Made by a program: the position numbers and the translations under genes
NCBI RefSeq assembly: GCF_003265155.1
Contig: NZ_QKVO01000002.1
Location: 1-24,000 of the forward strand
Direction of reading: 5' to 3'
DNA length: 24,000 bases
DNA from: Mycoplasma wenyonii
GTDB lineage: Bacteria; Bacillota_I; Bacilli_A; Mycoplasmatales; Mycoplasmoidaceae
Shown here: positions 1,325 through 23,196 of the stretch, piece by piece
Position numbering within the stretch: the first letter of the stretch is position 1
Layout of the letters: every line of letters begins with the position of its first letter
Notes under the pieces: model-generated
Database searches by the model: none
What the model was told of the DNA's origin: nothing
The model's input: only the letters and a program-made list of their open reading frames with translations

Positions 1325-1768
1325 TTGAAAAATCCATCTCTTCTAGCCTTTAAGAGTGGTGTGCAAGATGAAGCTCCTAGTGATGGAGAGAAAGATGATC
1401 TCTATTTAAAAGGCTTAGGTTATGCTGGCGGGGAGAGAGTTGATTTTGATGAGACTTACGAAGAGGAAGGGGGTGATGGGGAAAAGAGAACGCACCTTTG
1501 ACAATTGATTGTTTTTAAAGATACAGGGACGACTAAGGCGCAGACTATTCATAGTGGATTGGATTGGGGTGGTCGCGACGATGAACAGGGGACTTGTGAT
1601 AAGGGCTGGTTTGAAGTTGAAAAGCCTAAATTTGGAAGTACGGATATGTGACAAGAAGCTGTTGCAAAAGTGAGGTTCAAGCTAAGTAAATGTAGTAATG
1701 CGGGAGGTAGAAGAGAATGTGATATAGAAATCGCGGATTCAGTTGGATTAAAAGAATCTAGTTCCTAA
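1325..1768 (+). CDS. Repeat-module ORF (module 4, last unit); frame 2 opens at 1292, TTG 1325 is the first canonical start, TAA at 1766-1768
   Basis: ..KFNLFNLKNPSLLAFKSGVQDEAPSDGEKDDLYLKGLGYAGGERVDFDETYEEEGGDGEKRTHLWQLIVFKDTGTTKAQTIHSGLDWGGRDDEQGTCDKGWFEVEKPKFGSTDMWQEAVAKVRFKLSKCSNAGGRRECDIEIADSVGLKESSS*. Confidence 0.45.
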
Positions 1769-1775
1769 ATAATTA

Positions 1776-2344
1776 CTATCTCAAATAACCTATTTTTCAT
1801 AAAGAGGTTTTGTATTTATCTTTAGTCATCTCACTTCCAGTCATCTTTTTAACTACTAGATTACAAGTGGTTCCAGTTCCGCAAGGCAATTGACCCACAC
1901 ATTCAGATGTTCCTTTTTTCTTACAGAATGTAATCTCAGGCTTAGAATCACTTGACTTAGTCAATTTCAAAAGACCTAAAGGTCCTGAATTACCAGCCAT
2001 ATACCACAATTTCTTTGTATCTTTATCAGTTATATAAATTTTTCTACTAGTATCTTTATCTATTATTTCTTGAGGAAATTCAACTAATTTTTCATTGCTA
2101 GAGCTACTAGAAGAAGTAATACTAGCTAAAGATACTCATAAATTACAGATTCATATGTCTGTTCCTTGTTTATTTGCCGTTAAGCCACAAACTCACTCAC
2201 CATCACTAACTTTTTTTCTAAAAGTACTTTTAAAATCTCAAGAAGGATCAGTAAATCTAGATATTATGTAACCAGTTCCTATGCCCCCCCCGCAATAGCA
2301 GTTACAGCCACAGATGAAGAAAAAGCAAATAACTTAGAAACCAT
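1776..2344 (-). CDS. Signal-peptide/membrane-anchored Cys-containing protein, frameshifted at a G8 tract (phase OFF as sequenced); ~189 aa if the tract had 9 (or 6) G
   Basis: ATG at 2344 preceded by AGGAA. MVSKLFAFSSSVAVTAIAGGA then TAG with 8 G. The +1 frame is open (table 4) for all ~169 codons from the tract to TAG 1776-1778, and the first ~95 of these precede any ATG/GTG/TTG: ..GIGTGYIISRFTDPSWDFKSTFRKKVSDGEWVCGLTANKQGTDIWICNLWVSLASITSSSSSSNEKLVEFPQEIIDKDTSRKIYITDKDTKKLWYMAGNSGPLGLLKLTKSSDSKPEITFCKKKGTSECVGQLPCGTGTTCNLVVKKMTGSEMTKDKYKTSLWKIGYLR*. Confidence 0.6.
2284..2291 (-). repeat. Homopolymer C8 (+ strand) = G8 on the coding strand, codons 18-21 of the 1776-2344 gene; candidate slipped-strand phase-variation tract
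   Basis: Read directly: atg ccccccc|c gcaat at 2281-2295. It sits at the end of the signal-peptide coding segment, and a 1-nt length change restores the long ORF. Confidence 0.6.
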
Positions 2345-2436
2345 TTACTGGTTTCCTAGTTGCTGAAAAGAATTACCTAAATTTTATTTTTGAATTAACT
2401 ACTCTACAACTCTTTACCTAAGTACTCACAAAAGAT

Positions 2437-3024
2437 CTAAATTAAGAAGATTGCTTTAGGTTTAAAGTTAGGCTTTCATCCTAATCCAACTTCCTTAGAG
2501 ATATTTATCTCACATTCTTCTTTTCCCGATATCTCCTTACAGTTATCCAAAGTTAACTTAATCTTGTTAAATCCTTTATCAAAATGTTTATCTGCCTCCT
2601 TTGTTACTTCCAATACATCTTCATTACAAAATAGATTCTGATCATCATAGTTGTCTTCACCCATCCCTCCACTTAATGGAGCTATTCTTACTTTCTTTGA
2701 TACAGGAAAAATGGATAGTTCTCATGATGAATCTCTTGCTGTAATAATGTCTTCTAAACCAACATCTGTCTGTCTTTGTTGATCAAATCCTTTCCAATGT
2801 AGTTCTTTCTTTCCATCAGCCCCTAACTTGTAAATCAAAGACACATCAATAACATTAGAGCCAACGCTCTTGCAAGTAAGAATGGGAAGAGAAACTTGCC
2901 CTGCCCCTTCAAACACAAATGTGCCACGATCTACTTTCTTCCCCTTCATTAACTCATAAGCTACAGGAAGCCCACAACCAACACACACAGCCCCTCCTGC
3001 CATCAACAGCTTAGGAAGAAACAA
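2437..3024 (-). CDS. Secreted or membrane-anchored paralogue of the cassette module (195 aa), N-terminal hydrophobic signal with non-canonical lipobox-like AVCVGC
   Basis: TTG start 3024 (alternative ATG 3003). MFLPKLLMAGGAVCVGCGLPVAYELMKGKKVDRGTFVFEGAGQVSLPILTCKSVGSNVIDVSLIYKLGADGKKELHWKGFDQQRQTDVGLEDIITARDSSWELSIFPVSKKVRIAPLSGGMGEDNYDDQNLFCNEDVLEVTKEADKHFDKGFNKIKLTLDNCKEISGKEECEINISKEVGLGWKPNFKPKAIFLI*. It aligns to the array module along its whole length (ILTCKS/SLAFKS, SWEL/RWQL, LSGG.G, DD..C, KL.L.NC....ECEI.I). Two in-frame TGA; TAG at 2437-2439. Confidence 0.75.
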
Positions 3025-3066
3025 AACTAACTCTTGACTTTAAAAGTTAAACCTTAAATATCTTAA

Positions 3067-5484
3067 CTATTTATTAGAAAACAACTCTTTATACAGTTCT
3101 GAATAGTGTCTAATAGGTCTTAGTCTAATCTTTTCAAGTATTTCTTTAGGAATATCATCCAAGTGTCTTTCACTCTCTTTAGGATAGAAGATAGTATCTA
3201 CTCCTCCTCTAACAGCAGAGATAACCTTTTCTCTTAATCCTCCTATAGGCAATACCTTACCTCTAAGAGTCATCTCTCCAGTCATAGCTATATTGCTAGG
3301 AATAGGTACCTTTCTAAAGGCTGACAACATAGCTGTAGTGATAGTAATCCCAGCTGAAGGACCATCTTTCGGTATCCCTCCAGTTGGCACATGTAAGTTA
3401 ATGTCTATATCTGATCATTTAGTATCGTTTAACTTAAATTCACTTTCATTTGCCTTAATGTAAGAAAGTGCAACGTTAGCAGACTCTTTCATAGTATCTC
3501 TTAAGTTACCAGTAAGAATTAAATTGCCTTTTCCAGAGTAGTAATTTATCTCTACTGGAAGAAGATCTCCTCCATAATCTGTATAGGCCATTCCATTAAC
3601 CACTCCAGGTATAGATAATTCATCTTTAACTGTATGTTCATACTTCTCTTTGGAAAGATACTCCCTAACTATTTCTACATCAACATTCAAAGATACAAAG
3701 TCTTTATCTAGTTCTTGTTTTTGAATAAACTTTCTAGCTATTTGAGATAAAGATTGTTTCAACGCTCTCACCCCAGCCTCTCTGGTGTATCTCTGAATGA
3801 TGTAGGTAACTGCCTCATCAGTGAAGGTTAGTTCTGTGTCTTTTAACCCATGCTCTTCTAGCACTTCAGCTATTAAACCATTCTTAGCAATTTCTAGTTT
3901 TTCTCTTTCAGTGTAAGAAGATAACTTAATGATCTCTAATCTATCTAATAATGCTTCAGGTATATTGTCTTCATAATTGGCTGTAGCTATAAACATAACC
4001 TTTGAAAGATCTACTTCTTCTTCTATATAGTTATCTACAAATTGATGGTTTTGCTTAGGATCTAGTACTTCTAGTAAAGCTGATATAGGATCCCCATGAC
4101 TGCTACTTACTATCTTGTCAATCTCATCTAGTATGAATACAGGATTATTTACCTTTGCTTGTTTCAATCCTTTAATGATTCTTCCTGGCATAGCTCCAAC
4201 ATAGGTTTTTCTATGCCCTCTAATCTCAGCTTCATCGCTCAAACCTCCAAGAGAGATCTTTACACACTCCCTATTAAGACCTTTAGCTATTGATTGAGCT
4301 AATGAGGTTTTACCTACTCCTGGAGGTCCAGAAAGACAGATAATTGTTCCTTGTAGATTCTTTGTTTTCTTCTGAACAGCAACAAACTCAAGTATTCTTT
4401 CCTTGGGCTTATCTAAACCATGGTGATTCTTATCTAACTCTTTCTTAACCTTTGAAATAGTCTTTTGGTCTTTAGAGCTTCTTTCTCAAGGTAAAGCAAC
4501 TAACCAATTTAGATAAGAGTGAATAATCAAGCTCTCATTAGTTGAAATGACACTAGTGTACTCTAACTTCTTTAATTCCTCTTTAACTCTTTCTTTAACA
4601 TTGTGAGGGGCATCCACCATCTTTATTCAATCCTTGAATTTCTTTAGCTCTCCATCTCTAGAAAGACCTTCTCCTAACTCTTCTCTAATTACCTTTATTC
4701 TTTCTCTAAGATAGAACTCTCTTTGTTGCCTAGAGATGTTTCTATTTACCTTCTTTGAAATAGAACTATTGATCTCATCTTTTTCTGCCTCTGTTAGGTA
4801 TTCATAATCAAGCATTAAGGTAATTCTCTTTGAGAGATTTAGCTCTTCTAATCATTTTTGTTTCAAATCTACTCCATCCCTTTCATTTTGAGGTCAGATA
4901 CTACATAACTTATCTATGAGCTCTACACAAGAATCTTTACTAGAGTTCTCTACTCTCTCTATAGAAAAGAGTTTCTTGATATCTTCATAGTCTTTGCCTT
5001 GTACATCAAATAGTTCTTCAAAGTACTTAATTAGTTGTTCTAGGTCCTTTTTGTTCTTTACGAAGGAGGTGTTCTTTTCCTTAACGAACTCATAGTCTGC
5101 AAATCACATAGGACCCACATGTTCAAACCCAGTACATCTAATTACCTTAGGATCAGAAATTTGTACTCTTTGAATCCCATCTACCTTAGCTGTTATAGAA
5201 CCATCTTTATGTTGCTTAAGAATGCTCACCTTTGAGAGCGTACCAATCCTATATAAATCCGATGGAAGAGGGAAATCTACATCGTAGTCTTTCTGAGCAA
5301 TTACTACTATCTCTCCTTTGTGTTGAGTGAGAGCATAGTTAATGGAAGCTATAGAACACTCTCTACCAACCTCAATAATGTTCTTAGAGTTAGGGAAGAT
5401 AACTATATTTCTAGAAATTAATAGAGGAAGAGAATTATTAGTTACTGGTAGGTTGGTGTTTTCAGTTTCAGTCATACTAACCAT
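3067..5484 (-). CDS. lon: ATP-dependent Lon protease (805 aa)
   Basis: Four track fragments share one frame (ends 3390, 4242, 4815, 5484 all = 0 mod 3), joined only by TGA in the junctions I translated. Walker A GPPGVGKTSLAQSIAKGL, SDEAEIRGHRKTY, conserved LPW with W=TGA at 4486-4488, catalytic-Ser motif PKDGPSAGITI. ATG 5484, TAG 3067-3069. Confidence 0.97.
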
Positions 5485-5520
5485 TTAAGTTAATTCTTTG
5501 AAAAAAGTTCAAAGCTTATT

Positions 5521-5547
5521 TTAGCAGATTAATCTTTTAATTGCTAA
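5521..5547. promoter_or_regulatory. CIRCE-like inverted repeat (HrcA operator type) upstream of lon
   Basis: TTAGCAgat-taatctttt-aatTGCTAA has the 9+9+9 geometry of the CIRCE consensus TTAGCACTC-N9-GAGTGCTAA. The outer 6 nt of each arm match the consensus but the inner 3 nt diverge. It lies 37 nt upstream of the lon ATG. Confidence 0.5.
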
Positions 5548-5701
5548 ATTTACTTTCAAGCTAATATGAAAATAGCTCTTTAAGCAAGCTAAACTTGCAA
5601 ACCAAAAGATAAATTTATAAGTTTAGTAATTCTTAAAAATAAAATCTATATTGGTTTTTTGTTTGTTTTTTATTAAAAAGTAATCTCAATAGATTAGTTA
5701 C

Positions 5702-6142
5702 ATGGTTACAGAAATAAGAGCTTTCTCCAAAAGAAAAAAGAGTAGGGTAAATATCATTCTCACCACGCTCCCAAAAAGTGAGAATCAAGAACACAAACTC
5801 TTAATCTACACCAAAAAAGATGGAGAATACAGAGTAAGTAATCCAGTTGACTACTTCAAAGATGAATACTTAACTCCTATTCTTTTAAGCCCTTTCTCCT
5901 TTCTTCCCTCAAGAGCTTTAGAAGAAAAATACTCTGTAAAGGCTTTTCCTAAAGGAGGAGGGGTTAGCGCGCAGGCTCAAGCGATTGTGCTAGCTATCGC
6001 AAGAGCGCTTCTAAAATACTACCCAGAAATTAGAACTTCACTAAAGAGAGCTAACCTATTAACACAGGACCACAGAATGAAGGAAAGAAAAAAGATAGGT
6101 AAATACAAAGCTAGAAGATCTCCACAATTCACTAAGAGATAA
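5702..6142 (+). CDS. rpsI: 30S ribosomal protein S9
   Basis: 146 aa. [19 protein letters not shown] and the C-terminal [11 protein letters not shown] signature of uS9. Confidence 0.95.
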
Positions 6143-6987
6143 TGTCTTCAGAACAAGTGAAATTCACTCCCAAGATTGGATTTGGTACCGAATCTCTGAG
6201 AATCATTGAGATACTATCTCCATATCTAAAAGCGGCAAATGATCACAACTATGACTTTGTTGATTGTGGTTGAAAGTATGGAAATGAAGCTATTATTGGA
6301 CTAGCGCTTAGAGGTTTAAAAAGATCAGAACAAAAGTTTGAGTTTCTTCCCTATTTTCAATCAAAAGTGTGACCTTCTCAATTCTCTGGAGGGATTATTA
6401 AGTCTCTTAAGTTCTCCCTAAGCAAGATAGGTGTTGATACAGTAATACATACATACTTCCTTCATAGACCTTCAAATAATATGGAACTAAATCTTTCTGC
6501 CTACAAACAATTAATTTCCTGCAAGAATAATGCTTTAGCAAAGAGAATAGGTCTATGTAACTTTGATAAGGATGTAATTGAATGATTTCATAAGTTAACT
6601 GGAACACTGCCAGATGTTATTCAGTTTGAATGTTCTGTTAACAATATGAGATGAGACAGAATTGCATATTGCAGACAACACAATATTGAAATACAAGGAC
6701 ACACTCCTTTCGGTAACTATGAAAAGAATTCACAAAATCCTGTGTTGCAAGATATGGCTAAGAAATACAATGTTTCTCTTAAGACCTTATTAGTTGCTTA
6801 TCTACTAAATTTAGAAATAGTTCCTGTTGTGGTACCTAGTTCAGAAGACGAAATAGGAGAGATCATTAAAGCTAAAAAAATTAAATTAGATGAAAAAGAT
6901 ATAGAAACCCTAAAACAACTAAATGAATATGACAGTCAAACTTTTGAAACTCTACAAATTGACTATCCACAAGATGAACAAAACTAG
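6142..6987 (+). CDS. Aldo/keto reductase family oxidoreductase (281 aa)
   Basis: ATG 6142 overlaps the rpsI TAA (TAATG). Table-4 ORF with 4 in-frame TGA. AKR landmarks DCGWKYGNE (Asp/Tyr), SKVW (Lys), YFLHRP (His), LCNFD. Confidence 0.85.
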
Positions 6988-6990
6988 TTA

Positions 6991-7311
6991 ATGAGCAAGA
7001 AGATGGAGTTATGCTTTGAAATCAAAAACAAACAATATCTCTGTAATATAGGAGACAAGATCATCTCAGACTTTATAAAGAACACTGACTCAGGAGATGA
7101 ACTTAGTTTCTCTAATGTATTGCTTTACAAAGAAGAAATAGGCAAGCCTTATATTCCTAACCTAGAAGTTAAGTGCAAAGTAGTTAAACAAATAAAACAT
7201 AAGAAACTTCATATCTTACACTTAATTTCTCAAAAGAGACATAGAAAGAGAATGGGTTTCAGAGCTAAACACACTCTTCTGGAAGTTACTGAAGTAAAGA
7301 AGCTGTCCTAG
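6991..7311 (+). CDS. rplU: 50S ribosomal protein L21
   Basis: 106 aa, basic; ..KKLHILHLISQKRHRKRMGFRAKHTLLEVTEV typical of the bL21 C-terminal half. Confidence 0.88.
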   Translation: MSKKMELCFEIKNKQYLCNIGDKIISDFIKNTDSGDELSFSNVLLYKEEIGKPYIPNLEVKCKVVKQIKHKKLHILHLISQKRHRKRMGFRAKHTLLEVTEVKKLS

Positions 7312-7316
7312 TTTAA

Positions 7317-7796
7317 ATGTTCAAGACAAAAAAAGACGAGGCCCCTCTAAATACCAAAAACGTTGTATATAGATACTTCTTTTCAGGTACTTATGTTGAA
7401 AGAATGGATAACAAAAACAGAATAGCTATCCCTATTCCTTGAAGACATATTCTTAGAGATAAAGTCATTGTCACAAAAAACACTAATGTAGGTTGTTTAG
7501 TTGTATGAACTGTTGGTTTCTTTCAGTGATACGCTAACTCCAAAATCGAATCATGTGCCTCTGAACAAGAAAAACAACAAGTTAAGAGAATGTTTATTGG
7601 TAGCGCTAGAACGATAGATATTGATGCAAAGTCGAGAATGTGCCTTCCAGAAGATCTATTGACTATGCTTGTTCAACAAGATAACTATCTTTACTTTGTT
7701 GGTACTGGAGACTATATAGAGATTTGAACCAAAGAAATGTTTGAGAGCTGAAAATCCCAACAAATGCCTAAAGACTATAAAAACGAAGATCTTTAA
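7317..7796 (+). CDS. mraZ: Transcriptional regulator MraZ (159 aa)
   Basis: Two MraZ DxxxR half-sites: MDNKNRIAIP and IDAKSRMCLP. 5 in-frame TGA; ATG 7317, TAA 7794-7796. Confidence 0.92.
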
Positions 7797-7842
7797 TTAG
7801 TCTCTCTCCTGCCCTTAAATGGGCTGGGGAGATACTTAAGAC

Positions 7843-8775
7843 TTGACACAAAAACCCACTCACTTTCCTGTACTCAAGAAAGAAGTCTGTCAACACTGGC
7901 TTAACTCTCCAACAGGCTTCTATATAGACTGTACTTTTGGACAAGGAGGTCACTCAAAAGCTTTACTTAATCTTTTGTCCCCCGCAGCTTCTCTTTTGGG
8001 AATAGACATAGACCCTGATTGTTCTGAAGATGGCCTACAACTCTCTCAAGAAGACTCAAGATTTCGTTTCCAAAACCTTAACTACAGCTCACTTTATAAC
8101 TACTGAGTAAAACAAAAGCTTCCAAAAGCTTCTGGAGTACTCTTTGACCTAGGTTTCTCTACGGCTCAACTACAAGATCCTAAAAGATCTTTTAGCTACA
8201 ACTCTAGCTCTTCTTCTCTAGAGCTTAGATATGGATTAGATGGAAAGAGTGTCTATGAAATTCTCAATGAATACTCTGAACACAAACTCAACTGAATATT
8301 TAAACACTATGGGAATCTCAGAGAATATAAAGAGCTCACACAAGCTATTCTCAGAGAAAGAAAAAAAGAACCTATTACCAGCATAGAACAACTAAAAGCA
8401 ATACTCACTAATAACAAAGTCTTTCAAAAAAACAGATACAACAAGAACCAAATTAAGTTATTATTTCAAGCTCTTAGAATAGAGGCCAATAATGAACTAG
8501 AGAATCTAAGACACACTCTAGAGAAAGTTAAAGAGATACTAGAAGTTGGTGGTAAATTACTCATTATTACCTTTCAATCCCTAGAAGATGAACTAATAGA
8601 GGATTGAAAAAGGAAATATTCTTATTCCATCAAGATACCTGATATAGGGGAGACCATCCCTCCTTTATTCCAATTACATCCAGACTCCCCAATTCTACCT
8701 AGTAGAGAAGAAATAGAACTTAACTGAGCCTCTAGAAGCTCTAAGCTATGAGTCTTCACTAAGCTCAGAGAATAA
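7843..8775 (+). CDS. rsmH: 16S rRNA (cytosine1402-N4)-methyltransferase RsmH/MraW (310 aa)
   Basis: HFPVLKKEV, DCTFGQGGHS, FDLGFSTAQL, ALRIEANNEL, ITFQSLED motifs. TTG start 7843, TAA 8773-8775. Checked codon by codon from 8101 to the stop; only TGA interrupts. Confidence 0.93.
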
Positions 8776-8822
8776 AACATTTATTCTTTTTGTCCATTTC
8801 TACTTATTAATGAATTAAGAGA

Positions 8823-9374
8823 ATGTATCAACTCAAAAACAATCTAGGGTCTTTTGTTGAGAAAATTATGTCCAACACAGCTGAATACTATATCCAAAAT
8901 AACATAGCTTATTTAAGGAAATCTCATCCAGAATACATTCACCTATCAAAGAAGGCACAGAGACACTCTAATCTATTTGAAAATGAGGGAGACACCTATT
9001 CAATGAGAGTTTGTTCCAAAGGAGACCTAGACTTCTATGGTGTTTATAAAGGAAGGTATTTCTCCTTTGAGCTAAAAGAAACTCAAAAGCCAGTATTTGC
9101 TTTATCTCTAGTTAAAGACCATCAACTAGAGCAACTAAAGAGAATTGATTCTTGTGGGGGTTTAGCCTTTCTTCTTATTCACTTCTGTGACAATGATTCT
9201 AGATTTATACTCTTAAGTTATCCTGAACTCTTAAAGCTATTGGAACTGAAGAGAGCTAAAAGATTCTCAATAACTGACCTAGAAAAAGTTAAAAGTTATG
9301 AGTTAAAAATAGTATTTCCTAGTGTCTTTAATCTCTTTGAGCAACTAGATCAAATACTTTCAGACTCTAAATAA
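8823..9374 (+). CDS. recU: Holliday junction resolvase RecU (183 aa)
   Basis: GDLDFYGVYKGRYFSFELKET....VKDHQLEQL....GGLAFLLIHF matches the RecU catalytic core (D..G...G..FE.K.....HQ). Its 3' end overlaps the polC 3' end by 8 nt. Confidence 0.85.
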   Translation: MYQLKNNLGSFVEKIMSNTAEYYIQNNIAYLRKSHPEYIHLSKKAQRHSNLFENEGDTYSMRVCSKGDLDFYGVYKGRYFSFELKETQKPVFALSLVKDHQLEQLKRIDSCGGLAFLLIHFCDNDSRFILLSYPELLKLLELKRAKRFSITDLEKVKSYELKIVFPSVFNLFEQLDQILSDSK

Positions 9375-12300
9375 CTTTAGGACCAATTATCTCTAAATTC
9401 TCAAACAATTTCAAGATATTTATATTCAATTTCACTCTAGACTCTAAATCTGCTCTGTCTTTGTAGGCGCCATTTTTCTCCCTTTCTTCTTCTAGTTGAG
9501 AGGCGGTAATTGCCCCCAATCCTAAGATACAAGAAAAGGGAAGCAAGATAGTTCTATTGATTCTATCCGGTTTAAAAGTTGAGGCTAAAGACTCATTCAG
9601 TTGAACCATTCTGAACTTAATTCCTCTTGAAATCATTTCCAGTGCAACCTCATAGATCATTACTAGATACTTAGATTTCTCTGCATTCTCCTTACTAGAC
9701 TTACTCTTAACTCTTATCTTGTATTCTTGATATTTCCTCTTGATCTCTAGTAAATCATTAGTAATTAGAGACTCAATATCAAAGTGCTTATTGGTAATAG
9801 TGAAGTAAGCTGCATAGAACTCTACCGGATAGTAAAGCTTAAAGTAAGCTATTTTTCAACACATTAAGACATATGCAGTTGCATGTGCCTTTGGAAAGAT
9901 ATATGTGATCTTGTTGGCACAAGCAATATATCACTCAGGTACTTTAAAGTCCTTTAGAAGTTTTAAGTGCTCTTGAGGAATTCCTCTACCATTTCTAACA
10001 CTTTCAGCTATTCTAAAAGCTATATCAATACCTATTTTTTTATCTAACAAGTAGTTCATAATATCGTCTCTACAGGTAATTACCTCACTTAGATTTAGTT
10101 GATGGTTAGAGATCAATCTATCTATATTGTTTTTTCAGACATTCTTTCCATGGCTAATGCCTGAGATTCTTATTAAGTCTGAAAAGTGATTTAGTTTCTC
10201 TCTACAAGCTTTAACTATTTCTCTAGTTTTTTCGGTACCAAACTCAGGTAATCCTAGAGTTCCAACAGTCTCACCTATTAGCTCTAGTTTGTCGCTTGGT
10301 ATCTCTAATACAGAGATATCACTAAACATCTTGAGAATCTTCTTGTCATTGTAGCTAATTGTGTCTAAGTTCTGATTTGTTAGTTTGGAAAGTAAAGCTA
10401 ACATAGTTGGATCATCTTGCCCTAGTATGTCGAACTTAAAGAGTGAATCTTTGAGTGCATCTTTTTCAAAGTGAGTAGTTAATCAATCACTTGTAGTGTC
10501 ATTAGCTGGATAGTTAACGGGTGTATAGTTATAGATACTGTCTCCTTTAGGAATAACTATTATTCCTCCGGGGTGTTGTCCGGTAGTTCTCTTGATATCT
10601 GTGAGTCTACTAGAGAGTCAGTGTAACTTTCCTTTATTGAACTCGATCTCATTATCTAATAAATAATTTCTAGCTAAAGCGAAGGCCGTTTTCTCAGCGA
10701 CAGCAGAGATAGTTCCCGCTCTAAAGGTATTGTCTCTCCCAAATAACTCTCTAAGAAAGTTGTGTGCTTTCTGTTGATATTGACCAGAGAAGTTTAGGTC
10801 TATATCTGGTACCTTCTTCCTTTCTAGCCCTAGGAAAGTTTCGAAAGGAATGTGTTGTCCATCTTTATGTAGCTCCAAGTTGCAATTGGGACATTTTCTC
10901 TTGGGTAGGTCAAATCCAGATTCCTTGGTATTTTCCTTAAGTAAGAAATAAGAACATTTACTGCAATAATAGTGAGGTGGTAGTGGGTTAACCTCACTAA
11001 TCTCCAGCACATAAGCTAAGAAGGAAGAGCCCACAGAACCTCGAGAGCCGACCAAGAAACCTTCTGACTTAGACCTTTGAACTAATAGGTGTGCACACCA
11101 ATAAACAGTTTCATAACCATTCTCCTGAATACCTTGTAATTCCCTATTTAAGGTAGCTACTAGATATGAATTGGGTTTTGGTCCATATTTATTACTTAAT
11201 TTGCGATTAACATAGTTTTTTATGTTTTCAAAAGCCCCATCAATCTTAGGTAAAGAAAGAGTAGAAATATGTATCTTGATATCCGAGGAAATAGAGTCAA
11301 CTATCTCTTCTCTGTACTTGAAAAATAGTTCCTCTGTTTGCTCTTCAGTTAGTCCTAGAAACTCAAATTCTTTAATGAATCTTTCAGTGGTTCTAAATGA
11401 AAGGTCTGGCAAAACATCATTACTGAACTTAGAAGAGAAAAGAGGATGTCTTTTCCCGCCTATATTCTTGGCATGTACTATGACTTTGTATTGTTCTATC
11501 TCCTCGTATCATTTGAACTTCAAACAATAGTTAGCCATAACCTTAAAATTGCATTCCTTAGACCATCTATAGAACTTCTTAAGTAGGCCTTGAATTTCCT
11601 CTAAGGTATATCTTTTTCTATGAATCTCATGTAGGAAATGAGAAGGCGGAGGTAAGCTCAAATAGTCTAGTTTTTTTCCTTCTTCTAAAAAGAGTTCATA
11701 GTCGTCTTTAAAGAGTGCATCTAACATAACACTATTGGTAGGTGAAGAGATAAGAATTAAGTCTTTTCTCTTTTCTTGAATAGACTCCCAGTCAAGTTGG
11801 GGTTTATCTACAAAGCAATCTATGTGGGCTTTTGAGATTAACTCATAGAGTGACCTTATTCCCTCTTGATTCTTAGCGAAGAAAATCACATTAGAACCAA
11901 AGTAATTTCTCAACATCTTCTTTGAGTTAAAGAGAGTATTGATACCATCTAGCTGTTCATATACATATGGATCTATGGAGAATTCATAGAGTTGTTTTTC
12001 TCATTGTTTTCAGAGTCTTAATAAGCATTGAGTGTCGTATTCTGCAGAGTGAAGCTCTCTTTCGACTACATTGAAAGACATCTTTTTAGATAAAGCAAAG
12101 AGAGAATAAGACTTAGACTTCTTTTCACCCTCTAAAGCTTTAGCGAGTAGGATAGTGTCTAATAAAGGAGCTTGAATTGGTTCTAGCTTAGCCTTCTTAT
12201 ATTGAGCATTTAAGAATGGTAGGTCAAACTCAAGTCCATTGTGAGCCATCAAGATAGTTCCAGAAACATACTCTTTAACTTCTTTTAAGACCTGTATCTT

Positions 12301-13698
12301 GTCTCTACCTAATAAATCCAGCTTTTCATCTGTGATATGAGTTAAGTCAATAATTTCACTACTTAATTTCTTTTCACATTTAAGATAGCTGTGATAGTGA
12401 TCCATGATGATTCCATTGCTGTACTTAACTATGTAGATTTCTATTATTTCGTCAAATAAGGGATTTAGTCCTGTGGTTTCTAGGTCAAAGATAGAGTAGA
12501 CAACTGCACTATTCGGTTCCAATAAGTGAAGATTGGAAAGAATCTTTAAGTTCTCAGGAACAACTTCTATTTCGGAACCATACAAAGGTTTAAGACCATA
12601 CTTCTTTGCACTCTTCTCTGCTTCCGGAAAAACATGTACATTATTGAAGTCTGTGAATGCAATCACTTCATGACCTAATGATTTAGCCAATTCAGCTCAT
12701 TGCTCAGAGCTGAATAGTCCATCAAAACTAGAGTATTTGGTGTATACATTCAAAGAGAAAGCTTTCTTTGGGGAGTTATCAATTAACTTAAGGCCTTCAG
12801 GGAAATCAACCTCTGAGCAGTTCAATAACCAACCATCATAGTTTGATAGAGTCTTAGAGTTAGAGAGAGACTTTTCATCTAATTGGAACTCTATCTCGAA
12901 TCAATTTCCTACTTTTAGTATCTTTAAGCTTTTTTCTTTTTCCTCTGGAGAAGAAAGTCTACCTAAAGCTAATAAATAATGTTCAGTGAAATTAGTGAAA
13001 CCAACCTTGTACATCTTTTGGCCTCTAAAGTTATAGTTCTCTACTTCTTGAAAGAAATAGAGCTTGAATGTACCTTTACCTCTTGAATCTAAGGTTTTTA
13101 TAGAGCCAGAGAGAATGGGAGATGGAGTTGGGATCAAAGAAGAGGCGCTACTAGTTCTTAATAGTTCTTCAGGTACATAGTTTGAAGGAGAAGTAGATGG
13201 TACTAAAGGAACTTGTTCAACCTTAGCTATAGAAAGATATATCTGTTTTTGTTCAAATACAAACTCTAAGAAGGCTTGAAGATTAGAGAGATATTTCTGA
13301 AAGTATTTCTCGTAGGCTATATTTAGAGCCTTCAATATCACTTGAGGGAACTCAAAACATAAATGAACTTCCTTAAAACTACCCTTAAAAGCTTTAGATT
13401 GTTCTTCTTCTGCAAATGAAGCATAGGTTTCAAATCAACTTAGTAAGAGTCGATGTAAAGAAGTAGAGTTATAGAGATAGTTAAGTCTTACAACTAAAGT
13501 ACAAACCTGAGAAGAGAAATTAAATAGGGCAAATAGTTCTTTTGGTGCTGGCTCTTTGAAATACTCGAATATTAAAAAGAAATGATCTTTATTGGGTGAA
13601 AACTCTCATTTAAACTCAGCTTTACTTAATAACTTTTCTAGTTCTTCTTTATTAAATATCCTTAATTCCTCTGAAAGCAATCATTTGAGTTTCTCCAT
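9367..13698 (-). CDS. polC: DNA polymerase III alpha subunit, PolC type (1443 aa)
   Basis: Seven track fragments plus the 5' segment up to ATG 13698 share one frame (all ends = 0 mod 3). The N-terminal and C-terminal junctions I translated are interrupted only by TGA. 3'-5' exonuclease [10 protein letters not shown], Zn finger [44 protein letters not shown] 13698. Confidence 0.97.
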
Positions 13699-13858
13699 TA
13701 TTTTCTAACTAACTAAAAATTTAGAAAATCAAGACCATAGGGAAAATAAGGGGTATTCATCTTAAAATTAAAGATTGATTACGCACTTAGTGTATTTTCT
13801 TCTATATGATGTCACAAGCGAACAATATATTCTAGGAACTCAAACTCTTTAACGATCT

Positions 13859-14392
13859 ATGCAAAGTAAAACAGCAGTTAGGTTCATTAAGAGAACAATT
13901 AGAAATGTTTTAGATTTCTTTTATTGCAGTAGAGACAGGTTACAGGAAGGAGTAGAAAAAGTATTAAATATCTGGATTTATGAAATAATTGCTTTTGTAG
14001 GTTTGGTAGCTGGTTGTTTAGGGATAGGGATAGGTAAGAGTGATTGAAACCAAGCAGGCCTTTTGTGAGCAGGTCCTACAGGATTTACATTCTTACTTAA
14101 CTTGTTCATTATTTTGAACTGATTTTCAATGATGAAGAGAAACAGTAATGATCAAATAATTGTTAACTTTCCTCCACAAGTTAAAAATCTATTGTTGCTA
14201 AATATCTTGTTAGGATTCTTCTTTCCATATGGTATTTTTGCTAAAAGCCTATTCTATAAGCACTTCTATGCTCTTTACAAGCAAAATCAACTATACTGAG
14301 CTAATCCAAATGACACCAGACAAGAAAGAAGAAAGAGATACAGAGAATATAGAGCTCAAAAGAGAAGAGAAATGGACTCAATAATTGGCTAA
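13859..14392 (+). CDS. Hypothetical membrane protein (177 aa, about 3 TM segments, basic C-terminus)
   Basis: ATG 13859. Table-4 ORF with 4 in-frame TGA. Hydrophobic stretches IIAFVGLVAGCLGIGIG, GFTFLLNLFIILNWF, LLLLNILLGFFFPYGIF. TAA 14390-14392. Confidence 0.6.
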
Positions 14393-14898
14393 ATTACCTT
14401 ACCATAGGAAAAGAGAAATATAGAGTAGTTTTTCTCCCTAAGACTAAAATCTTCTTCTTTTAGTAGTTTTCACTCGCTATCCCTAGACCATTCCCTTATT
14501 TTCTTTGGGTAAGCATGTGGCAAACAACAAAGTCATAACTGTTTAGTCTTTCAGTCTTCGGGCAATTTCTCTAGTATAGTAATGATCTTTTTAGAACCTA
14601 ATCCAGCTAACACAATAAGTATCTCTTTGTAACCTCTAATATTCTCAAAAGAAAGCTCAGAGAATCCATCTGATAAAAAAAACCTAGCTTTTAAGTCTAC
14701 CCCTTTCTCTGAATAAAGCTTTTGAGAATTCTTTAATGAGACCTTACTTAACTCAACATTTCAAACCTCACTAATTAATTCATTTCTTAAGAGCTTTAAG
14801 CCTAAAAGGCCAAGATCAGCTCCTATATCAACTAAAAGAAAGTTATTGTTAGGAGTCAAAATAGCAGAGAGAAACTCTGCTATCTTCCTTATCCTTAT
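14389..14898 (-). CDS. trmK: tRNA (adenine22-N1)-methyltransferase TrmK-like SAM methyltransferase; start codon uncertain (ATA 14898?)
   Basis: ..IRIRKIAEFLSAILTPNNNFLLVDIGADLGLLGLKLL...VWNVELSKVSLKNSQKL....LSDGFSEL....EILIVLAGLGSKKIITILEKL parallels TrmK (RL..IA..I...DIGSDHAYLP...GDGL...ITIAGMGG.LI..IL). The frame opens right after the rpsD TAG, and there is no ATG/GTG/TTG upstream of the conserved N-terminus. Confidence 0.72.
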
Positions 14899-20960: not shown

Positions 20961-22202
20961 TTAAGTTGCTACTAATAACAAAGGATCTATAGGGCCAAAA
21001 CAAGAAATATAAGAAGAAGAAAATACAAAGTAAAAGCAAATAGTTATAAATACGATAGTGGCTCCAAATAAACCTAGGCTTAAGTAATTAATTGAATAAG
21101 TTCTATAGCTAGTTCTTCCAGCTTTAGGGAGATAAGCTCTCGAAATCATTGCATTCGCAAGCTCTCTAGACTTAATCATTGAAATAATAAATAGAGGTAT
21201 AAATAGAGAAAGAAAAGCAGAGGCCTTATCTCTTAATCTTCCATTCTTAAAGTCAATACCCCTACTTGATTGTGCCTTTACTATTCTCAATGTTTCGACT
21301 AATAATGAAGGAATAAATCTTATTGCTAATGAAATAACTAAAGTAATTTCCTTAACAGGTATCTTTAAGAACTTAAGTGGTCTAATTAATTGACCTATTG
21401 CAAAAGTAAATGAAGTTAAGTCAGTAGTGTGACTTAATGCACTTGACAACGCAATCATCATTACTAACTTGTTAGACATATTGAAAGCTAATAAGAATTG
21501 AAATAGAGTTACTGTATATCACTTAGGAATAAACCCTGCTATCTTCTTCCCACTAGCACTGGTTACATAAAAAGTCTTAAGTCCCTTTAAGTGGTTTTTT
21601 AAGGTACAACAATTAATTCCAGTGGTATCCTTGCAACAATCTGCTTTATTTTGCTGTGCGCACTCACAAGCTTTCTTTAATTCTTCCACACTATTTGCTG
21701 AAAAGATTTCAGAGCCCCCAGATCCCTTTGCACACTTACAACATCCTGTTCCTGTTTTGGCTGAACAGTGCTTTACAACCTCCCCTCCTAGTTGCCACCC
21801 AACTTCTATATTTGAGGTGCCATTCCCAGAACTAGAAGAATTTTGTCTCCCCCTAAAGCTAAAGGGAGAGATAGATCCTAAATCTGAATAAGCAGATGTC
21901 AAGTAGTTCTTGTCCCAAAATCCAGGATTTTTATTAAATATTCAATTAACAGTAAAAAGAAATAAATATATTCCTACATACAAGCAAAGTAATTTCTTAT
22001 ACAGTAAAGCAAAGCTCCCAGAAAAATAGAGAATTAATAAGGTAAAAGCAAGTAGTAATAAATGAAGTAATATTCCAATCTTGGAAAAGATTAGAAAAGT
22101 TAAGAGTATAAAGGCTATTAGCTTTAATACAGGATGAGCGGAAGGAACCGAAGCCCCTAACCCACCTATACTCTTAGTGGTTAGACGACTGTTAACTAAA
22201 AT
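20961..22202 (-). CDS. ecfT: ECF transporter transmembrane subunit EcfT (~413 aa) carrying a large Cys-rich insertion; probable ATT start
   Basis: Track ORFs 20961-21479 and 21519-21902 are in the same frame (= 2 mod 3), joined by TGA. N-terminus SIGGLGASVPSAHPVLKLIAFILL resembles EcfT G.Y.P..S..H.LDPR.KL. C-terminal half has IRFIPSLLVETLRIVKAQSSRGIDF (EcfT coupling-helix motif). The frame opens after TAG 22209-22211. Confidence 0.85.
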
Positions 22203-23082
22203 TTTTGACTAAATTATCTATAGACTCGGCGAGTTCCAATATATTTCTAGGTTGATATTCTCAAAGTCTTTCAAAGTAAGCATTAAAGGCAGATAACTTC
22301 TCAATAAAACTAATTACCTTAGGCTTAATTAATTCTTTTGGACAATTTCTGAAGAATGAATAAGTTGGTTGGGTTTTTTGCAACCTTCCTTCATTCAGAA
22401 AAAGAGTTGTATCCGTACTTTCAAATATGAAATCCATATTACTAGAAACCAAGATAATAGTTACTTTTTTCTTTTTAAGCTCCTTCACTAGCTCTAAGAC
22501 TTGCTCTGTGGATTGGGGATCAAGCCCCAAAGTAGGTTCATCAAAAACAATCACCTTTGGCTCAAGAATTAGTATTCCTGCTAAAGTAACTTTTCTCTTT
22601 TGACCTCCAGATAGCTTAAAGGGAGAAGAATTAACTAGTTCAAGTGGGAATGACAACTCTGAAAGTATGGCCTTTGCTTTTTCTTCTCATCTTGGAAGTT
22701 CATACTTTTGAAGATTAAAGAGAATCTTGGGACCAAAGATTATGTCTTGAAGAACAGTTTCCTTAAAAAGTTGATACTCAGGAAGTTGAAAGACTATTCC
22801 AACCTCTCTCCTGATAGCCTTATAATTTTTTAGTTTTGAGTTAAAAAAAAGAATCTTCTCTCCACTAGCATAATAAATGTTGGCTGTCTCAGATCTATGC
22901 AATCCATTTAGGTGTTCACAAAAAACACTCTTTCCAGAACCACTGGGGCCAACAATTCCATAAACTTCACCTTTCCGAAATTTAAAGGAAAAAGAATATA
23001 GTACCCTCTGACCTTTAAAAGTAGAACTTAGATTATGTACTTCAAGAGCATTAGTAGATTCAATTGTGTGATTTAGTGCAAT
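22192..23082 (-). CDS. ecfA2: ECF transporter ATPase subunit EcfA2 (~296 aa); non-canonical (ATT) start
   Basis: Walker A GPSGSGKS, EcfA2-type VFQLPEYQLFKETV, LSGGQKRKV, VIVFDEPT. The track stop at 22261 is TGA; the true stop is TAA 22192-22194. In-frame TAA lies at 23089-23091, with no ATG/GTG/TTG before the Walker A. Confidence 0.9.
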
Positions 23083-23196
23083 TTTTTTTTATATCTATAT
23101 TCTGCTAACCTATCCTTATTCAAATAGATAGCTAAACTGTCTATTCTCTTCATTTGGGAGGCTAATTTTACTCTTTGATTTTAGAGCAATTTTTTA

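Follow-up and report, generated by a model that had tools for sequence, protein, structure and literature searches.

A candidate poly-G contingency switch within the leader of a predicted surface protein gene of Mycoplasma wenyonii

In Campylobacter jejuni, Helicobacter, Neisseria, and Haemophilus, surface-related genes at many loci contain intragenic poly-G/C tracts of about 8 to 9 nucleotides (nt) with a modal length, where one G more or less toggles the full-length ORF (open reading frame) and ON and OFF states are mixed. Among Mollicutes, the surface protein genes Vaa of Mycoplasma hominis and P78 of M. fermentans carry an N-terminal poly-A frameshift switch, and a change of one nucleotide in either direction truncates the product. 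Here we describe a gene from M. wenyonii, which parasitizes the blood of cattle, in which a run of eight G's separates a short leader ORF from a long body ORF in another frame; it lies in a 24,000-nt stretch of DNA (positions 1 to 24,000 of contig NZ_QKVO01000002.1), which we call the window. This gene and others of the M. wenyonii clade resemble the poly-G/C loci named first, which undergo translational phase variation by slipped-strand mispairing (reviewed, e.g., in PMC8355987 and PMC5084427), in having a G run in the coding region of an AT-rich genome with a one-G toggle. They differ in their host, an uncultivable Mollicute that lacks a cell wall and uses genetic code 4, in that switching is here read from sequence, and in the stereotyped position of most tracts within an N-terminal hydrophobic leader or directly behind it. 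The gene shares with Vaa and P78 the N-terminal homopolymer in a Mollicute, but theirs is made of a common base, whereas poly-G is strongly under-represented elsewhere in this DNA. The spma lipoprotein locus of M. agalactiae combines poly-G tracts with a tandem surface protein family and is suspected of controlling expression and rearrangement (PMC3053259). It has in common with the clade's tracts the poly-G itself, the tandem surface-type families, and a ruminant host; it differs in phylogenetic group, in its proteins, and in a role that is only suspected, whereas the tracts described here are intragenic with a clear frame logic.

The window belongs to an M. wenyonii lineage, and code 4 (TGA = Trp) was applied throughout; Lon, PolC, and other long genes of the window are whole only when TGA is read as Trp. 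The target gene occupies positions 1776-2344 of the minus strand and consists of the following parts.

Positions 2279-2344, minus strand: leader ORF as it stands, from ATG at 2344-2342 through 21 codons (MVSKLFAFSSSVAVTAIAGGA) to a TAG stop at 2281-2279.
Positions 2284-2291, minus strand: G8 homopolymer (C8 on the plus strand), the proposed slipped-strand switch, in which G9 or G6 would be ON and G8 OFF.
Positions 1776-2285, minus strand: body ORF in the other frame, 169 codons from GGC at 2285-2283 to TAG at 1778-1776.

An earlier interpretation made from the letters alone (the sequence-only reading) had described a leader that runs into G8 and stops at once at TAG, and these coordinates were confirmed. 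Its statement that nine or six G's restore the frame also proved correct when the tract length was edited: G9 gives an ORF of 189 amino acids (aa) and G6 one of 188 aa, both ending at TAG 1778-1776, and the G7, G8, and G10 variants meet a premature stop (at most 9 codons). One nucleotide more or less in the tract thus separates a full-length ORF from early termination, a behavior expected of a homopolymer contingency locus. The fused product has the junction peptide AIAGGGIGTGYIISR and six Cys residues (53, 67, 141, 149, 155, and 161). Its N terminus is hydrophobic over residues ~2-28 (Kyte-Doolittle 11-residue windows of at least 1.0), with GGG at residues 19-21, so the tract lies inside the hydrophobic segment and not, as had been proposed, just after a signal peptide. 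No Pfam or NCBIfam model matches the product.

Both the tract and the frame behind it are unusual for this DNA. Apart from the C8/G8 tract, the window has no stretch of six or more consecutive G's or C's; 0.03 runs of G8/C8 would be expected, and 2 of 100 dinucleotide shuffles contain at least one, in line with the earlier remark that such runs are rare here. Positions 2284-2291 thus hold an over-represented, uninterrupted homopolymer above the length (about 7 nt) at which coding-region tracts are taken as contingency candidates. In housekeeping genes, GGG makes up 11.6% of Gly codons. An open frame as long as the body (169 codons) was found in none of 20,000 composition-matched shuffles (P about 1e-4) and is therefore not due to chance. 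After the tract this frame contains no ATG, GTG, or TTG for ~91 codons, the earliest being a TTG at 2009. The view that it makes sense only as a continuation of the leader is upheld by this absence and by a relative, described below, in which both parts form one continuous ORF.

A k-mer protein search with the target returned a single match, P0001 (67% identity), on L001, a Logan short-read contig from SRR26391074 that comes from a sister species. The search is patchy for this clade, giving one match for the target and three for the neighboring family, of which more members are present in the corresponding locus of M. wenyonii strain Massachusetts (L003). L001 is syntenic with the window (PolC-RecU-RsmH-MraZ-L21-AKR-S9-Lon-gene), with ~85% nt identity in the housekeeping part and 91% aa identity in Lon. 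Its orthologue of the target has the same layout, namely ATG, MISKLFAFYSSMAVTAIAGG, G8 (L001 9992-9999), and a 176-codon body with the same frame offset as in the window. The leaders differ at 5 of 54 nt, all six Cys residues are kept, and once each tract is lengthened by one G, the protein products share 72% identity. A body-frame ATG directly follows the tract in L001 (10001-10003; the window has ATA there), which is why P0001 was called as a 175-aa protein without the leader. A single-sequence structure model of P0001 reached a predicted local distance difference test (pLDDT) score of only 41.5. A second Logan short-read contig, L002 (SRR10197851), is 100% identical to window positions 1761-14448 (12.7 kb) and also has 8 C's at the tract; it probably represents the same strain, and possibly even the same reads, put together by a different assembler. 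All tract lengths in this study are as called in the assemblies.

The body frame carries a clear mark of constraint between the two species. By the Nei-Gojobori method, the nonsynonymous rate dN is 0.20 and the synonymous rate dS is 0.78, a ratio (omega) of 0.26 (bootstrap 0.14-0.43); the values for Lon are a dS of 0.70 and an omega of 0.07. Differences by codon position number 36/26/59 and are concentrated at the third, 5 of 5 indels are multiples of three (3 or 9 nt), and no stop codon interrupts the frame in either the 169 codons of the window or the 176 of L001. With this low omega, the third-position excess, and the exclusively in-frame indels, the body does not look like a frame left untranslated since before the split. 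Judged by these substitutions, the body frame is under purifying selection, and the gene is not a plain pseudogene. The sequence-only reading had named a tract fixed at 8 with decay downstream as the sign of such a pseudogene; the tract is indeed 8 in the window and in L001, yet the body shows no decay.

Leader and tract are more conserved than the rest of the gene, as is a short stretch upstream.

Positions 2233-2337, minus strand: block of unusually high nucleotide conservation centered on the tract, 105 nt, 91-96% identical to L001 in 45-nt windows against ~76% for the whole gene, synonymous sites included.
Positions 2364-2394, minus strand: conserved block of 31 nt (TTCAAAAATAAAATTTAGGTAATTCTTTTCA) with a TAAAAT -10-like hexamer and one mismatch against L001, likely a promoter region.

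Farther upstream of the second block, identity to L001 is only about 40%. We consider that the block is likely to be the promoter region on the strength of its conservation and hexamer; a consensus promoter scan of the window did not call it. The good start context claimed earlier held up in part: a Shine-Dalgarno-like AGGAA is present 8 nt upstream of the ATG in the window but is not conserved in L001. A hairpin (GGAAACC/GGTTTCT; window 2336-2356, minus strand) spans this AGGAA together with the target's start codon. It is also foldable in L001, with one compensatory pair, and is weak (consensus -5 kcal/mol).

Remote relatives place leader and body in a single protein. A phmmer search with P0001 against 1.84 billion proteins found two, P0131 and P0130 (E 1.8e-6 and 6.5e-5). 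P0131 is a continuous 209-aa ORF (L054 1180-1809) from the same sample as L001 (SRR26391074), and it aligns with the target from Met1, across the tract position, to a C-terminal W..YL motif; the target body is collinear with both paralogues. This uninterrupted alignment makes leader and body parts of one and the same protein. The alignment of four family sequences has 36 invariant columns, with conserved Cys residues and the motifs VCG, DKD..LWY, and W..YL. The Gly-Gly at the tract position is invariant in all four and is encoded by GGA GGA in P0131. That paralogue has an in-frame G8 of its own (L054 1396-1403), not in the leader but at codon ~73, in a Ser/Gly linker (SGGGT). On this alignment, the target belongs to a small family of its own, in which the position of the tract is not fixed.

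The proposed distant kinship with the neighboring module family was not sustained, as BLASTP gave no match (E 0.28 or worse) and hhalign a probability of 0.4%. We therefore rejected the target as a member of the Lon-adjacent family, which includes the gene at 2437-3024 and the modules at 3-1765; only the layout of leader plus tract is common to them. That layout recurs in the Lon-adjacent family itself. One of its members (WEN_01630 / OVS_02700-like proteins of ~200 aa) is the gene at 2437-3024 (minus strand), which lies upstream of the target and encodes 195 aa from a TTG start. In strain Massachusetts, family copies are arranged in tandem between lon and rplJ (L003 and L052; CP003703.1:324032-344652). 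The window's Lon matches an M. wenyonii endopeptidase La (RAO95158.1) at 100% identity; the Lon of Massachusetts is 83% identical to that of the window at the aa level, and that of M. ovis Michigan 81%. In the Massachusetts array, seven copies have a G run 77-84 nt past the ATG, directly after the hydrophobic leader, and a third, unrelated ORF of at least 331 codons in the same strain also has a hydrophobic leader, a G8, and a body that needs one more G. The eight tracts are as follows.

L052 8128: G8, out of frame, needs +1.
L052 9432: G8, in frame.
L052 10733: G8, needs +1.
L052 12001: G8, in frame.
L052 12688: G7, needs +1.
L052 13329: G8, needs +1.
L052 14032: G9, needs -1.
L052 699-706 (CP003703.1 about 324730), minus strand: G8 of the third ORF, needs +1; the gene is annotated only as a 251-aa fragment.

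Two of the seven array copies are thus in frame and five are out. When the four out-of-frame G8/G7 copies were rebuilt by correcting the tract alone, each gave a full-length protein of 195 aa, collinear with the in-frame copies; in the G9 copy, a 171-codon body remains open. Near-identical sequences flank the G7 and the G9 tract, and in each copy G8 would restore the frame; recent duplicates have thus seen the tract both lengthen and shorten. Six of the eight Massachusetts tracts are G8, irrespective of frame. Across ~60 kb of M. wenyonii-clade DNA there are 12 G/C runs at least 7 nt long, where chance predicts ~0.1. Seven would have to gain one G and one to lose one G to restore the frame; three are in frame already, and the last lies in a deleted remnant.

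The array and its tracts differ from lineage to lineage. In a more distant haemoplasma locus (L053, SRR27853839), lon and rplJ are direct neighbors, and no G/C run of 7 or more occurs in its 22 kb. M. ovis (L004, CP006935.1) has one family copy in this gap, which reads GAGSGGS and has no tract. Massachusetts has about nine copies, and the region is rearranged in the window's lineage. The paralogue array is thus an expanding insertion between lon and rplJ. At the tract position of the window gene 2437-3024 there is a degenerate AAGGGGAAGAAAG (2934-2946, minus strand), and its L001 counterpart has an intact G8 (9752-9759) followed shortly by a deletion of ~390 nt, leaving a remnant. Tracts have evidently been gained, lost, or interrupted between lineages, and they may be linked to rearrangement. 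Scans of a genome contig collection with target peptide patterns and with a G7+...FPLF[TS]C DNA pattern gave chance matches only, the collection evidently lacking this clade, and a metagenome scan with the conserved 25-nt leader-plus-tract sequence gave no matches.

We favor the interpretation that the gene is a slipped-strand poly-G contingency locus that is currently OFF, and we regard this as probable, short of strong confidence. The product would be a protein of 189 aa that contains Cys residues, has a hydrophobic N terminus acting as anchor or signal, and is presumably surface-exposed. The G run would encode a conserved Gly-Gly(-Gly) within the anchor and at the same time serve as the contingency switch, with slipped-strand mispairing at replication gaining or losing a G. 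With 9 (or 6) G's, leader and body would be in frame and the protein would be made; with 8, translation would end after a 21-residue peptide. Both sequenced lineages would then have been sampled OFF, at the apparent modal length in the clade. Since six of the eight Massachusetts tracts are G8 whatever their frame, finding G8 in both lineages is not an unlikely coincidence. The gene would be one of many such loci, with at least three unrelated leader-bearing families carrying G7-G9, and the blood population would express varying subsets of them. We infer that length change at the target is frequent and reversible, that the protein is exposed at the surface, and that switching serves immune evasion.

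Three observations weigh against this interpretation. The target gene itself shows no length polymorphism (8 in the window, in L002, and in L001). Of the eight out-of-frame tracts in the clade, seven need one more G, and such a bias would be expected equally from +1-nt recoding or from systematic under-calling. Finally, the window probably derives from a draft with about 7x coverage; the most likely source is the INIFAP02 draft, an Illumina MiSeq 2x300 data set of ~7x coverage assembled with SPAdes (PMC6256526). The sequence-only reading of a phase switch in its OFF state nevertheless stands as the best-supported account, given the conserved offset, the purifying selection, and the G7, G8, and G9 tracts of Massachusetts; switching at the target we infer, with the tract at 8, 8, and 8.

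The alternative that survives best, although we consider it unlikely, is programmed recoding, in which the DNA would be stably G8 and the full-length protein made constitutively, either because RNA polymerase adds an extra G or because the ribosome slips by -1. At transcriptional slippage and -1 frameshift sites, such as those of dnaX, insertion sequence (IS) elements, and endosymbiont genes rescued at poly-A tracts, an extra RNA nucleotide or a -1 slip restores the frame, and the target is like these sites in its homopolymer and its species-conserved offset. G8 and the offset have been kept in two lineages (dS ~0.7-0.8) while the body was under purifying selection, and the 105-nt block around the tract is conserved down to its synonymous sites. 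G_GGG_GGG would permit perfect re-pairing of tRNA-Gly in the -1 frame, a slip that yields the same protein as G9, and the +1 nt required by seven of the eight out-of-frame clade tracts is what such a mechanism would supply. The target is unlike these sites in having a run of G rather than A/T, for which efficient transcriptional slippage is mainly documented, and in lacking a stimulatory structure: downstream of the tract, folding at five loci revealed no RNA structure that is stable or conserved (z-scores -0.55 to +1.2), and the upstream Shine-Dalgarno-like AGGAA, the other potential stimulatory element, differs in L001. The distance to the zero-frame stop is not conserved either, being 1 codon past the tract in the window and 6 in L001, and the in-frame G8 paralogues and the G7/G9 pair that both need G8 fit poorly with a fixed G8 signal at homologous sites. 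It is doubtful, too, that G8 is a conserved Mollicute recoding site in addition to a DNA switch, such that the protein would normally come from G8 templates by slippage or a -1 slip. If it were, many surface proteins would be produced in a low constitutive trickle from genes that are OFF by default, with an in-frame length equal to the modal length +1.

We give little credence to a homopolymer miscall, by which the true tract would be G9 in one or both genomes and the OFF state an artifact. The low MiSeq coverage of the likely source draft speaks for it, as does the deficit of exactly one G in every out-of-frame tract except one; moreover, the longest A/T run of the window (A9, 23082-23090) is found where a gene begins, and A10 would there join on an ORF that starts from an upstream ATG. 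Against this, two assemblers give 8 for the strain (window and L002), and the independent sample of another species (L001) also reads 8 and contains an in-frame G8 as well (L054). Massachusetts shows in-frame G8 copies and one over-long G9, and the long housekeeping ORFs of the window (PolC of 1445 aa, a 1130-aa ORF, and Lon of 805 aa) all remain unbroken despite 43 A/T runs of at least 6 nt. A miscall, if there were one, would alter only the current state and not the nature of the locus.

It is less probable still that the gene is dead, inactivated by a frameshift at a mutable tract and not yet decayed. Every available copy of the target is out of frame, the neighboring L001 gene is a deleted remnant that still has its G8, and haemoplasma paralogue families are suspected of containing many unrecognized pseudogenes (PMC3958358). 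A frameshift that predated the split, however, predicts dN/dS near 1 and stops or out-of-frame indels over a dS of ~0.78, which is not what the body shows, and two independent recent losses would themselves imply frequent slippage. The tract has also been kept uninterrupted although many synonymous changes could break it. The weakest alternative, which we consider very improbable, holds that the leader is a separate small ORF and that the body starts just after the tract, perhaps by termination-reinitiation, so that the tract is no switch: the ATG behind the L001 tract, used by the gene caller, the overlap of the window's leader stop TAG with ATA, and the ATT-type starts seemingly used in the genome's ECF genes would suit it, but the hydrophobic segment (residues 2-28) crosses the tract, paralogues carry leader and body in one ORF with an invariant Gly-Gly, no start codon follows the tract in the paralogues of Massachusetts that are out of frame, and a body without its anchor would lose targeting.

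Other features of the window are recorded here as side observations. Four head-to-tail modules occupy positions 3-1765 of the plus strand (3-491, 487-912, 916-1311, and 1292-1765, in frames 3, 1, 1, and 2). Each matches positions ~56-186 of the 197-position profile of the Lon-adjacent family (E 5e-28 to 5e-20). They have no leader, tract, or ATG and are convergent with the target gene, and the L001 and L002 contigs end there; these modules could be silent donor cassettes or a decayed multidomain gene. The A9 run (T9 on the plus strand, 23082-23090) is at the 5' end of an ECF-type ABC ATPase ORF (22192-23088, minus strand) that has no ATG, GTG, or TTG near its start and apparently begins with ATT just past the run. 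The ORF that A10 would join to it in frame begins with ATG and reads MKRIDSLAIYLNKDRLAEYRYKKK. Possible explanations of the A9 case are that ATT serves as the start codon, that a homopolymer frameshift occurs here as well, or that the assembly is wrong. An EcfT-like ORF (20961-22208, minus strand) likewise has no canonical start near its 5' end and seemingly uses ATT, overlapping the stop of the upstream gene, which suggests that non-canonical start codons may be used in this genome.

Haemoplasma genome papers take paralogue families and mostly intergenic variable-number tandem repeats found with Tandem Repeats Finder as grounds for proposing antigenic or phase variation, and none of the five considered (PMC3958358, PMC3146833, PMC3091866, PMC3196708, and PMC3496576) mentions homopolymer or frameshift switches. 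Their tandem-repeat scans could not have revealed such tracts, since homopolymers are undetectable by them. A literature search returned no paper joining "hemoplasma" with "homopolymer." The mechanism itself is of a well-known kind. The searchable literature appears to contain no description of it in haemotropic mycoplasmas, of tracts placed so regularly in the leader, or of its occurrence across unrelated families.

Haemotropic mycoplasmas are unculturable and cause chronic infection with cyclic bacteremia, and their paralogous families have long been suspected of a part in immune evasion, with no concrete switching mechanism named in the genome papers considered. A specific switching hypothesis follows from the poly-G tracts that at least three unrelated gene families in the M. 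wenyonii clade carry in or after the leader. The tracts also explain misannotation, in that the genes are called as fragments or missed, and this bears on lists of epitopes and vaccine candidates.
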